DNA of 64,000 nucleotides from Escherichia coli. Lineage in GTDB: Bacteria > Pseudomonadota > Gammaproteobacteria > Enterobacterales > Enterobacteriaceae. Under the pieces are notes generated by a model. It was not told where the DNA came from and made no database searches. It saw only the letters and a list, made by a program, of their open reading frames with translations. Position 1 is the first letter of the stretch, and each line of letters starts with the position of its first letter. Shown here piece by piece: positions 35,290 to 37,131 of this stretch. The translations under genes and the position numbers were made by a program. The stretch lies in assembly GCF_029227855.1 (NCBI RefSeq), contig NZ_CP074356.1; one strand, 5' to 3'.

Positions 35290-35696
35290 GTGAAAAGGTG
35301 GTGTTCAGTCAACTGAGCCGTAAATTTATTGATGAGAACGATGCCACGCCCGCCGAGGCGCAGCAGGTGGTCTATTACAGCCTGGCGATTGGTCACCACC
35401 TTGGGGTTATCGATTGCCTGGAAGCGGCGCTCACCTGTCCGTGGGATGAATATCTGGCATGGATTGCCACTCTGGAGGCGGGCAGCGAAGCCCGCCGCAA
35501 AATGGAAGGCGTGCCGAAATATGGTGAGATCGTCATCGACATTAACCATGTGCCGATGCTGGCCAACGCATTCGATAAAGCCCGGGCTGCGCAAACTTCG
35601 CAGCAGAAAGAATGGAGTACAATGCTGTTAAGTATGCTGCATGATATTCATCAGGAAAACGCCATCTATTTGATGGTGAGGAGATTGCGTGACTGA
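35286..35696 (+). CDS. hycH: Formate hydrogenlyase maturation protein HycH
   Basis: Track ORF 136 aa; conserved operon position. Confidence 0.9.
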
Positions 35697-36159
35697 CGTT
35701 TTACTCTGTGTTGGCAATAGCATGATGGGCGATGATGGCGCAGGTCCGCTGCTGGCGGAAAAGTGTGCCGCCGCGCCGAAAGGTAACTGGGTGGTGATTG
35801 ACGGCGGTAGCGCACCGGAAAACGACATCGTCGCTATTCGCGAACTGCGCCCGACACGACTGTTGATTGTCGACGCCACGGATATGGGGCTAAACCCCGG
35901 CGAGATCCGCATCATCGATCCGGATGATATCGCCGAGATGTTTATGATGACTACCCATAACATGCCGTTGAACTACCTTATCGACCAGTTGAAAGAAGAC
36001 ATTGGCGAAGTGATTTTCCTCGGCATCCAGCCGGATATCGTCGGCTTTTACTACCCGATGACCCAGCCGATTAAAGACGCCGTAGAAACCGTTTATCAAC
36101 GACTGGAAGGCTGGGAAGGGAATGGCGGATTCGCGCAGTTAGCGGTGGAAGAAGAGTAG
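35689..36159 (+). CDS. hycI: Hydrogenase 3 maturation endopeptidase HycI
   Basis: Track ORF 156 aa; N-terminal LLCVGNSMMGDDGAGP protease motif. Confidence 0.93.
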   Translation: MTDVLLCVGNSMMGDDGAGPLLAEKCAAAPKGNWVVIDGGSAPENDIVAIRELRPTRLLIVDATDMGLNPGEIRIIDPDDIAEMFMMTTHNMPLNYLIDQLKEDIGEVIFLGIQPDIVGFYYPMTQPIKDAVETVYQRLEGWEGNGGFAQLAVEEE

Positions 36160-36215
36160 TTCGTAGACAAACATGTTCACGTTTTGGAATTTGGACGTGC
36201 AATTGTGACGTGTAG

Positions 36216-36259
36216 ACGGGTGTTTACATATTGTGAACACCCGTGTGATCAACTACTAT
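36216..36259 (+). promoter_or_regulatory. Putative promoter and operator of the HigBA-like module: 9-bp perfect inverted repeat overlapping the -35, then a -10
   Basis: acgggtgtt-N11-aacacccgt inverted repeat at 36216..36244; TTGTGA (36231..36236), 17-bp spacer, TACTAT (36254..36259); 66 nt upstream of the toxin ATG. Confidence 0.45.
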
Positions 36260-36325
36260 AGAAAAATAAATCCGAAGGAATGGTAGTCCAGGTTTAGTCA
36301 TTCAGGCGCTAATAAGGAAGTTAAA

Positions 36326-36637
36326 ATGCACATCATTTCGAAAGCGCCATTTGAAGAGTGTGCGCGCAAATATCCTAACGACGCTCTGGCTCTACACTCA
36401 TTGTATCGGGTTATTAAGGAAACGGATTTTTCTACACCAGAAGAAATGCGAACGGCGTTTCCTAACCTCGACAATTTTAAATATCGCAACAAATGGTACG
36501 TTCTGGATGTCGGCGGGAACAATCTTAGGGTTATTGCCTACATAAACTTTGTTAATAAGCGGTTCTTTGTGAAGCACATAACGAATCACGCAGAGTATGA
36601 CAAACTGACACGTTACTACAGAGAGAACAAAGAATGA
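36326..36637 (+). CDS. Type II toxin, HigB-like (RelE/ParE superfamily mRNA interferase)
   Basis: Track ORF 103 aa; resembles E. coli HigB (MH.I.KA...YP, FP.LDNFKY, VGGN.LRV, TH.EYD); AAGGAAG Shine-Dalgarno; stop overlaps the next ATG (ATGA). Confidence 0.8.
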   Translation: MHIISKAPFEECARKYPNDALALHSLYRVIKETDFSTPEEMRTAFPNLDNFKYRNKWYVLDVGGNNLRVIAYINFVNKRFFVKHITNHAEYDKLTRYYRENKE

Positions 36638-37053
36638 CTGCTAATGCTGCACGCGCTGTTAAAGCAACAAGAGAACTGGTCAATGCAGTCCCCTTTCTGG
36701 GAGGCAGTGACTCAGAAGATGATTATCGTGAAGCACTGGAACTGGTCGAATATTTGATTGAAGAAGATGACACCAATCCACTTATCGACTTTCTGGCGAG
36801 CCGCATTGCAGAATATGAAAACAACAACGAAAAGTTTGCAGAGTTCGACAAAGCCGTTGCAGCAATGCCGGTTGGCGTGGCGTTACTTCGTACGCTGATT
36901 GATCAACATAATTTGACCTATGCGGATTTGAAGAACGAAATCGGCTCTAAATCTCTGGTCAGTCAGATTTTGTCTGGGCAACGATCCCTGACGATATCCC
37001 ATATTAAGGCACTTTCAGCCCGATTTGGCGTTAAGCCGGAATGGTTTCTTTGA
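36634..37053 (+). CDS. Type II antitoxin, HigA-like (XRE-type HTH)
   Basis: Track ORF 139 aa; C-terminal HTH (SKSLVSQILSGQRSLTISHIKALSARFGV); same architecture as HigA; translationally coupled to the upstream toxin. Confidence 0.8.
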   Translation: MTANAARAVKATRELVNAVPFLGGSDSEDDYREALELVEYLIEEDDTNPLIDFLASRIAEYENNNEKFAEFDKAVAAMPVGVALLRTLIDQHNLTYADLKNEIGSKSLVSQILSGQRSLTISHIKALSARFGVKPEWFL

Positions 37054-37079
37054 TTTTGACTGATGCCAAACCCAAGATT

Positions 37080-37104
37080 GCCCGATGCGCAACGCTTATC
37101 GGGC
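37080..37104. terminator. Hairpin between the antitoxin and convergent ascB (weak terminator or REP-like)
   Basis: gcccgat-N11-atcgggc followed by TTT on the plus strand. Confidence 0.4.
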
Positions 37105-37131
37105 TTTCCTGGTTCGTGCGACGGTAGTTAC

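Follow-up and report, generated by a model that had tools for sequence, protein, structure and literature searches.

A 17-bp palindrome as the probable HigA operator of a second higBA-type toxin-antitoxin module, located between hycI and ascB in Escherichia coli

The best-studied relatives of the module described here are the higBA (ygjN-ygjM) operon of E. coli K-12 and the sehAB operon of Salmonella (STM4031/STM4030.S). K-12 HigB-HigA, encoded between fadH and rlmG, shares with the present module a toxin-first operon, a toxin of family PF09907, and an antitoxin whose HTH_3 domain is C-terminal; its single promoter, mapped by primer extension, is derepressed upon deletion of the locus and repressed by HigA supplied in trans, and inverted repeats have been drawn as putative binding sites (PMC2814082). 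Two such sites, GTTGCCA-ATC-TGGCAAC and ATTGCCA-ATT-TGTCAAC, flank the sequence TATCAT at a centre-to-centre distance of 29 bp and follow a 7-3-7 design (GTTnnCA-N3-TGnnAAC), with the -35 element TTGCCA placed in the left half of the first operator (O1). A search of the literature by PDB code found no paper on a HigA-DNA complex for the K-12 type. The sehAB locus, located for this work in metagenome contigs by means of a published primer sequence, carries GTTTTCA-ACT-TGAAAAC, 21 nt, and GTTTTCA-GGT-TGAAAAC (i.e., two perfect 17-bp palindromes 38 bp apart), and its promoter, TTGAAA-17-TAAATT, has the -35 element in the right half of O1 and the -10 element just before the second operator (O2). 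SehB shifts its own promoter fragment at 125-250 nM in electrophoretic mobility shift assays, and mutants in its helix-turn-helix (HTH) do not (PMC7160566); deletion of sehB raises sehA mRNA more than 32-fold (bioRxiv 10.1101/2024.07.09.602740; later PMC12817084). The most direct published evidence for the binding of a homologue to one of these palindromes, surface plasmon resonance of SehB on the first palindrome with a Kd of 150 nM, is found only in a retracted paper and was given no weight (PMC3868539). The HigB-HigA system of the Proteus vulgaris plasmid Rts1 resembles the arrangement predicted below in function only, the operator sequence being different: an HTH antitoxin dimer sits on inverted repeats overlapping the -35 and -10 elements, most of the repression is retained with one operator, and the P. 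vulgaris HigB-HigA proteins fail to bind the hig operator of E. coli (PMC12266136).

The module considered here lies in a stretch of E. coli DNA of 64,000 nt, analysed as a whole and referred to as the window, which is 100% identical to the E. coli TUM1886 chromosome over the query. The gene order is hycI (35689-36159), a 166-bp spacer, higB, higA, and a convergent ascB (Table 1), and a literature search returned no paper combining higB with hycI and none on this locus. A preliminary description of the sequence had announced a toxin-antitoxin pair downstream of an inverted repeat, and domain searches bear this out, yielding a HigB-family toxin and an HTH_3 antitoxin. The toxin gene comes first, its stop codon and the start codon of higA overlap by 4 nt (ATGA), and the two genes are presumably co-transcribed. 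By toxin family, full-length homology of the antitoxin, and gene order, the module is of the K-12 YgjN/YgjM type. HigA is 46% identical to K-12 HigA over 134 residues and matches PDB 5ifg_B with an E value of 2.5e-35 (among its relatives, only K-12-type HigA structures have been solved), and HigB is 39% identical to K-12 HigB and 58% identical to SehA. Assignment of the module as an orthologue of SehAB was considered and rejected, given a HigA-SehB identity of 44%, a different half-site, and a different genomic context; sehAB is rather a sister subfamily. Judged from these comparisons, the higBA pair of the window is a third subfamily with a half-site of its own, about equally distant from K-12 higBA and from sehAB.

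Table 1. Positions of the genes and of the observed and predicted regulatory elements in the window.
Feature	Position	Strand	Remarks
Full 29-bp palindrome ACGGGTGTTTACA-TAT-TGTGAACACCCGT	36216..36244	.	Arms of 13 nt, 12/13 complementary; centre TAT, 3 nt; encloses the 9-bp arms
Outer left arm ACGGGT	36216..36221	.	Allele-specific, not conserved; ACAAGT in allele B
Conserved core GTTTACA-TAT-TGTGAAC	36222..36238	.	Predicted operator for a HigA dimer; equals O1 of orthologues
Predicted -35 element TTGTGA	36231..36236	+	Last base of the centre plus five bases of the right half-site; 4/6 to consensus
Outer right arm ACCCGT	36239..36244	.	Allele-specific, not conserved; TTGGAT in allele B, ACTCGT in strain WL297
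Predicted -10 element TACTAT	36254..36259	+	17 nt after the -35 element; closes the 21 nt that follow O1
Position of O2	36260..36276	.	GTTYACA-TAA-TGTAAAC in orthologues; decayed in the window
Shine-Dalgarno-like AAGGAAG	36314..36320	+	Ahead of the higB start codon; taaggaagttaaaa common to allele B
higB-family toxin gene	36326..36637	+	103 aa; PF09907, E 3.8e-23, 82 bits against a cutoff of 27; RefSeq: HigB family toxin
higA-family antitoxin/repressor gene	36634..37053	+	139 aa; PF01381 (HTH_3) at residues 85-138, C-terminal HTH

The spacer between hycI and higB contains the perfect 9-bp inverted repeat of the preliminary description (acgggtgtt at 36216-36224, a gap of 11 nt reading tacatattgtg, and aacacccgt at 36236-36244), the size of which had been understated: the 9-bp arms are present as described, and they extend inwards to arms of 13 nt (36216-36228 and 36232-36244). 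When the 166-bp spacer was subjected to 5000 dinucleotide shuffles, 66 of them (1.3%) contained a perfect repeat of 9 bp or more whose gap did not exceed 20, and 4 (0.08%) a repeat with 12 or more matches, no more than one mismatch, and a gap of 11 or less. Across the window, about 14 distinct perfect 9-bp inverted repeats with a short gap were counted against about 5 expected (64000 x 21 / 4^9), so that a 9-bp repeat taken alone is weak evidence.

Far more informative is what lies at the middle of the palindrome. Here, two 7-bp half-sites, complementary at 6 of 7 positions, surround a 3-bp centre, and this 17-bp core recurs upstream of every orthologous higBA locus that could be analysed. Loci were gathered by a scan with the HigA alignment, limited to one genome per species, which gave 25 loci from, among others, Leclercia, Mangrovibacter, Kluyvera, Citrobacter, Phytobacter, Yokenella, Pluralibacter, Photorhabdus, Pantoea, and Mixta; two loci on a Salmonella mobile element were added by exact-protein look-up, and loci L010, L012, and L027, which have no recognisable higB at the expected place, were left out. 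All 22 orthologous or allelic loci analysed carry one or two GTTYACA-N3-TGTRAAC sites upstream, nearly all of them exact and none with more than two mismatches. Two copies, O1 and O2, occur in 16 loci, where exactly 21 nt lie between them in every case (38 bp between centres), and in these loci the information content per position is 1.87 bits for O1 and 1.82 bits for O2, as against 0.24 in the 30 nt before O1 and 0.84 between the operators. The core moves with higBA into unrelated genomic contexts that contain no hycI. Even a metagenome-assembled genome of the Desulfuromonadales, whose HigA is 48% identical to that of the window and has the same recognition helix (SKSLVSQILSG), presents GTTCACT-TCT-TGTAAAC and GTTTACC-CAA-GGTAAAC around a -10-like GATACT. 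Within the window itself, a scan for GTTYACANNNTGTRAAC allowing two mismatches gave a single match, the core, with 0 mismatches; chance alone would, on our own reckoning, give about 0.001 exact matches in 64 kb. The 11 nt regarded in the preliminary description as a spacer carry most of the conserved recognition sequence, and its 9-nt arms consist mostly of the allele-specific flanks ACGGGT and ACCCGT.

The mobility of the module is illustrated by Salmonella enterica (L036-L038), in which a higBA copy 79% identical to that of the window, with both operators intact, has transposase genes, a phage-holin-like gene, and a YdaS-family gene as neighbours; a copy amid such genes indicates that the module is also carried on mobile or prophage DNA.

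The same comparison supports the promoter. TTGTGA within the repeat and TACTAT 17 nt further on lie exactly where they had been placed before, and they match the conserved -35/-10 register of the relatives, in which TTGTAA, formed from the centre and right half of O1, is followed after 17 nt by TATAGT, TATCAT, or TATAAT; in sehAB, the equivalent of the -35 position is TTGAAA. With the window anchored on O1, the gap after O1 ends with TACTAT, and the two elements are therefore positional homologues of the conserved ones. A consensus promoter scan did not call the TTGTGA/TACTAT pair, which agrees with the consensus at 8 of 12 positions; the promoter was retained despite the missed call solely because its position is conserved in relatives. 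Transcription of higBA is predicted to start at about 36266.

Comparison of the three subfamilies also suggests how their operators may be told apart. The bases GTT..CA / TG..AAC are invariant across all three, and the two central bases of the half-site vary together with the recognition helix of the antitoxin: GC with SKSMVSRVLSG in K-12 HigA (half-site GTTGCCA), TT with SKSNVSNILNG in SehB (half-site GTTTTCA), and TA or CA with SKSLVSQILSG in the clade of the window (half-site GTTTACA in the window itself). In this clade, HigA residues 102-128, the region of the recognition helix, are almost invariant among 15 orthologues. The shared design GTT-NN-CA / TG-NN-AAC thus offers a simple and testable specificity code by which paralogous toxin-antitoxin systems would be insulated from one another. 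The layout of sehAB is that of the orthologues of the window; SehB differs from the HigA of the window in being longer at its N-terminus, and the two modules differ in genomic location and in the number of operators, both being kept in Salmonella and one being lost in the window. With respect to K-12, the window has one operator rather than two (its orthologues having two at 38 bp instead of 29 bp), and its -35 element falls in the right rather than the left half of O1.

Taken together, the core conservation and the known autorepression of K-12 higBA and sehAB make it highly probable that the palindrome contains the operator of a chromosomal higBA-type module between hycI and ascB, at which HigA would repress its own operon by binding the 17-bp core. 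The preliminary reading of the repeat as an operator for autorepression is in this way upheld by homology, and it requires correction with regard to the boundaries of the site and to the second operator. By analogy with its homologues, HigA is expected to bind at 36222-36238, where a dimer of the protein, built of an N-terminal helical domain and the C-terminal HTH, would set an HTH against either 7-bp half-site. With 10 bp, or one helical turn, between the centres of the half-sites, both would lie on one face of the helix and each would accept one recognition helix. As the right half-site forms part of the -35 element, bound HigA, or the HigB-HigA complex, would keep RNA polymerase off the promoter; such steric exclusion would bring about autorepression of higBA, and loss of the antitoxin would lead to its derepression. 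On this reading, the arrangement is an ordinary HigA-family antitoxin operator, and the understanding of toxin-antitoxin autoregulation is unchanged by these findings. For annotation, the gain lies in regulatory-site boundaries for a widespread and uncharacterised second higBA module of E. coli, which with its promoter is present in about 20% of complete E. coli genomes, including that of the enteropathogenic strain E2348/69.

A departure from the relatives concerns O2. A search for a second copy of the motif in the 200 nt upstream of higB found none within three mismatches, and two copies flanking the -10 element, one of the features taken to characterise a HigA-family operator, are thus not seen in the window. 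Where a typical orthologue reads TATAGT-GTTCACATAATGTAAAC-GGATGGAAC from the -10 element onwards, the window, representing E. coli allele A, reads TACTAT-AGAAAAATAAATCCGAA-GGAATGG, and allele B reads TATAGT-TTCCGAACACATAAGGATAGAAC (with the place of O2 at about 2431-2447 of L001). O2 is consequently decayed in both E. coli alleles, and differently in each. Relatives with a single operator occur in Pantoea, Mixta, and locus L013. With O2 lost, repression in the window would rest on one operator, and regulation of higBA may be weaker or different here. Loss of O2 in both alleles provides a natural comparison of one- and two-operator control. Both E. coli alleles were also seen to have a longer 5' leader and a new ribosome-binding region (taaggaagttaaaa).

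The two alleles were counted in 5426 complete E. coli genomes. Allele A, defined by the upstream sequence of the window, occurs in 343 genomes (about 6%), including that of EPEC E2348/69, and 308 of the 343 match the intergenic query at 99% or more. Allele B, found in 748 genomes, differs greatly in its upstream sequence and has hycI and higB separated by a hypothetical gene of about 250 aa; of the remaining genomes, some have higA only and some have neither gene. The same HigA (WP_000126294.1) is paired with both promoter alleles, the spacers of which share, as their only long identical block, a 21-nt run containing the core, in addition to the -10 area and the ribosome-binding site; in allele B, the -10 element is TATAGT at the same 17-nt spacing. 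That an identical HigA serves both alleles and that both have kept the core fits the proposal that this protein reads the core.

The outer 6 bp of each arm, by contrast with the core, most likely lie outside the recognition sequence. Across 32 orthologous operators, 47 of 192 flank positions (24.5%) are complementary, which is the random level, and the longest contiguous extension among them is 3 bp. Between alleles A and B, the right-flank hexamer differs at 5 of 6 positions, and the bases that follow, TGAT..A.C, are common to both. Pairing of the allele B flanks with a 2-nt shift, considered as evidence of covariation, was rejected, as it amounts to 3 bp only. Nevertheless, a perfect 6-bp extension has a chance of about 1 in 4096 per site and is unexpected if the core alone matters. 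Template-switch mutation perfects quasi-palindromes by copying one arm onto the other, and it is plausible that the outer arms are a neutral by-product of a single event of this kind, which would also explain a right flank so altered beside bases common to both alleles. E. coli strains were also searched for outer-arm changes that compensate for one another, with no informative case, allele A being nearly invariant and WL297 the sole variant. This strain (L033), at 92.6% identity the most divergent of allele A, has the right arm TGTGAATACTCGT (aligned to 36232-36244) with two C to T changes, one of them at the last base of the conserved core, and its HigA bears a different accession, WP_000126291.1.

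Apart from a neutral origin, the 6-bp extension might add a second function to the operator, either as an RNA hairpin on the hyc transcript or as an affinity-raising compensation for the lost O2. We regard such a second function as unlikely overall; if true, one palindrome would serve both a host operon and an inserted toxin-antitoxin module. Under the compensation hypothesis, the outer arms would be a functional extension of the operator that, following the loss of O2, restores tight repression through higher HigA affinity or through cruciform or bent DNA. The decay of O2 in the window and the rarity of so long an extension are in keeping with this proposal, as is the near invariance of the extension in four other aligned allele-A strains, although the latter may reflect recent common descent. 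Allele B, in its 748 genomes, has also lost O2, yet it shows no in-register extension; the orthologous flanks pair no better than at random; and 29 bp exceeds the usual contact of a single HTH dimer. The proposal is accordingly held to be quite improbable.

A role at the RNA level, in which the hairpin would terminate the hyc operon mRNA or stabilise its 3' end and would insulate higBA from read-through, appears less credible still, despite some features of the transcript in its favour. In + strand RNA, the single mismatch between the arms becomes a U.G wobble and gives an uninterrupted 13-bp stem, located 57 nt after the hycI stop codon, with a minimum free energy of -21.6 kcal/mol (z = -3.7; 0 of 200 shuffles as good) compared with -17 kcal/mol for the - strand, and a terminator scan found no other terminator-like site between hycI and higB. 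Both substitutions of WL297 are C to T opposite G and keep the pairing in + strand RNA, but such a change always gives a wobble, and WL297 is therefore weak evidence. Against the proposal, the tail, GUGAUCAAC, has no U-tract, so that the hairpin falls short of a canonical intrinsic terminator; it went uncalled in the terminator scan, and no Rfam family matched at E values up to 1 between 36000 and 37200. Since the core travels with higBA to contexts that contain no hycI, the RNA hypothesis can moreover concern only the allele-specific outer arms. We consequently rate a role of the hairpin in the hyc transcript as very unlikely. The idea that the palindrome is fortuitous, or that it belongs to some other regulator unconnected with the toxin-antitoxin pair, may draw on the abundance of 9-bp repeats in the window and on the weak promoter match, but it is excluded for practical purposes by the exact conservation of the core with higBA across genera and contexts in which the surrounding DNA is not conserved, and it is further opposed by the rarity of the core motif and by a reading of the repeat-region sequence that revealed no full site of the CRP type (TGTGA-N6-TCACA) or the FNR type (TTGAT-N4-ATCAA).

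Several further observations accompany the assignment of the core as the HigA operator. Upstream of the palindrome, two strings resemble half-sites, TGTTCAC at 36174-36180 and ATTGTGAC at 36202-36209, the second of which makes a direct repeat of ATTGTGA with 36230-36236. Inspected by eye as candidates for a further operator, they showed no convincing partner half-site and were set aside in that capacity, the motif scans being confined to sites with at most two mismatches (whole window) or three (back to 36126); they may be relics of older operator copies.

At least four states of the hycI-ascB gap (36160-37131 in the window) occur in E. coli: higBA with the short spacer, the ~250-aa gene together with higBA, a remnant with higA only, and an empty site. 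In the empty site (L004), short stretches still match the two ends of the hypothetical gene and the DNA that follows higA, which suggests a deletion scar and not an insertion site that was never occupied. Strain BEN2908 (L003, 1585-2215) has lost the DNA from within the hypothetical gene to a point close to the 3' end of higB; promoter, operator, and toxin are gone, and an intact orphan higA stands just after hycI. In many genomes, the match to the query is confined to its higA half. A hairpin, GCCCGAT-gcgcaacgctt-ATCGGGC at 37078-37102, separates the ends of higA and of the convergent ascB; it is kept in the empty-site strain and may be a terminator region that the convergent genes share.

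Lastly, the toxin itself invites comparison with SehA, which did not appear among the protein matches listed. SehA has been reported to inhibit RNase III and not to cleave mRNA (PMC12817084). The residues reported as critical in SehA (Y53, D61, H88, Y91, K93, T95, Y97, and Y98) are present as the same residues, with the same numbering, in the toxin of the window, and by analogy this E. coli 'HigB' may act like SehA rather than as an mRNA interferase.
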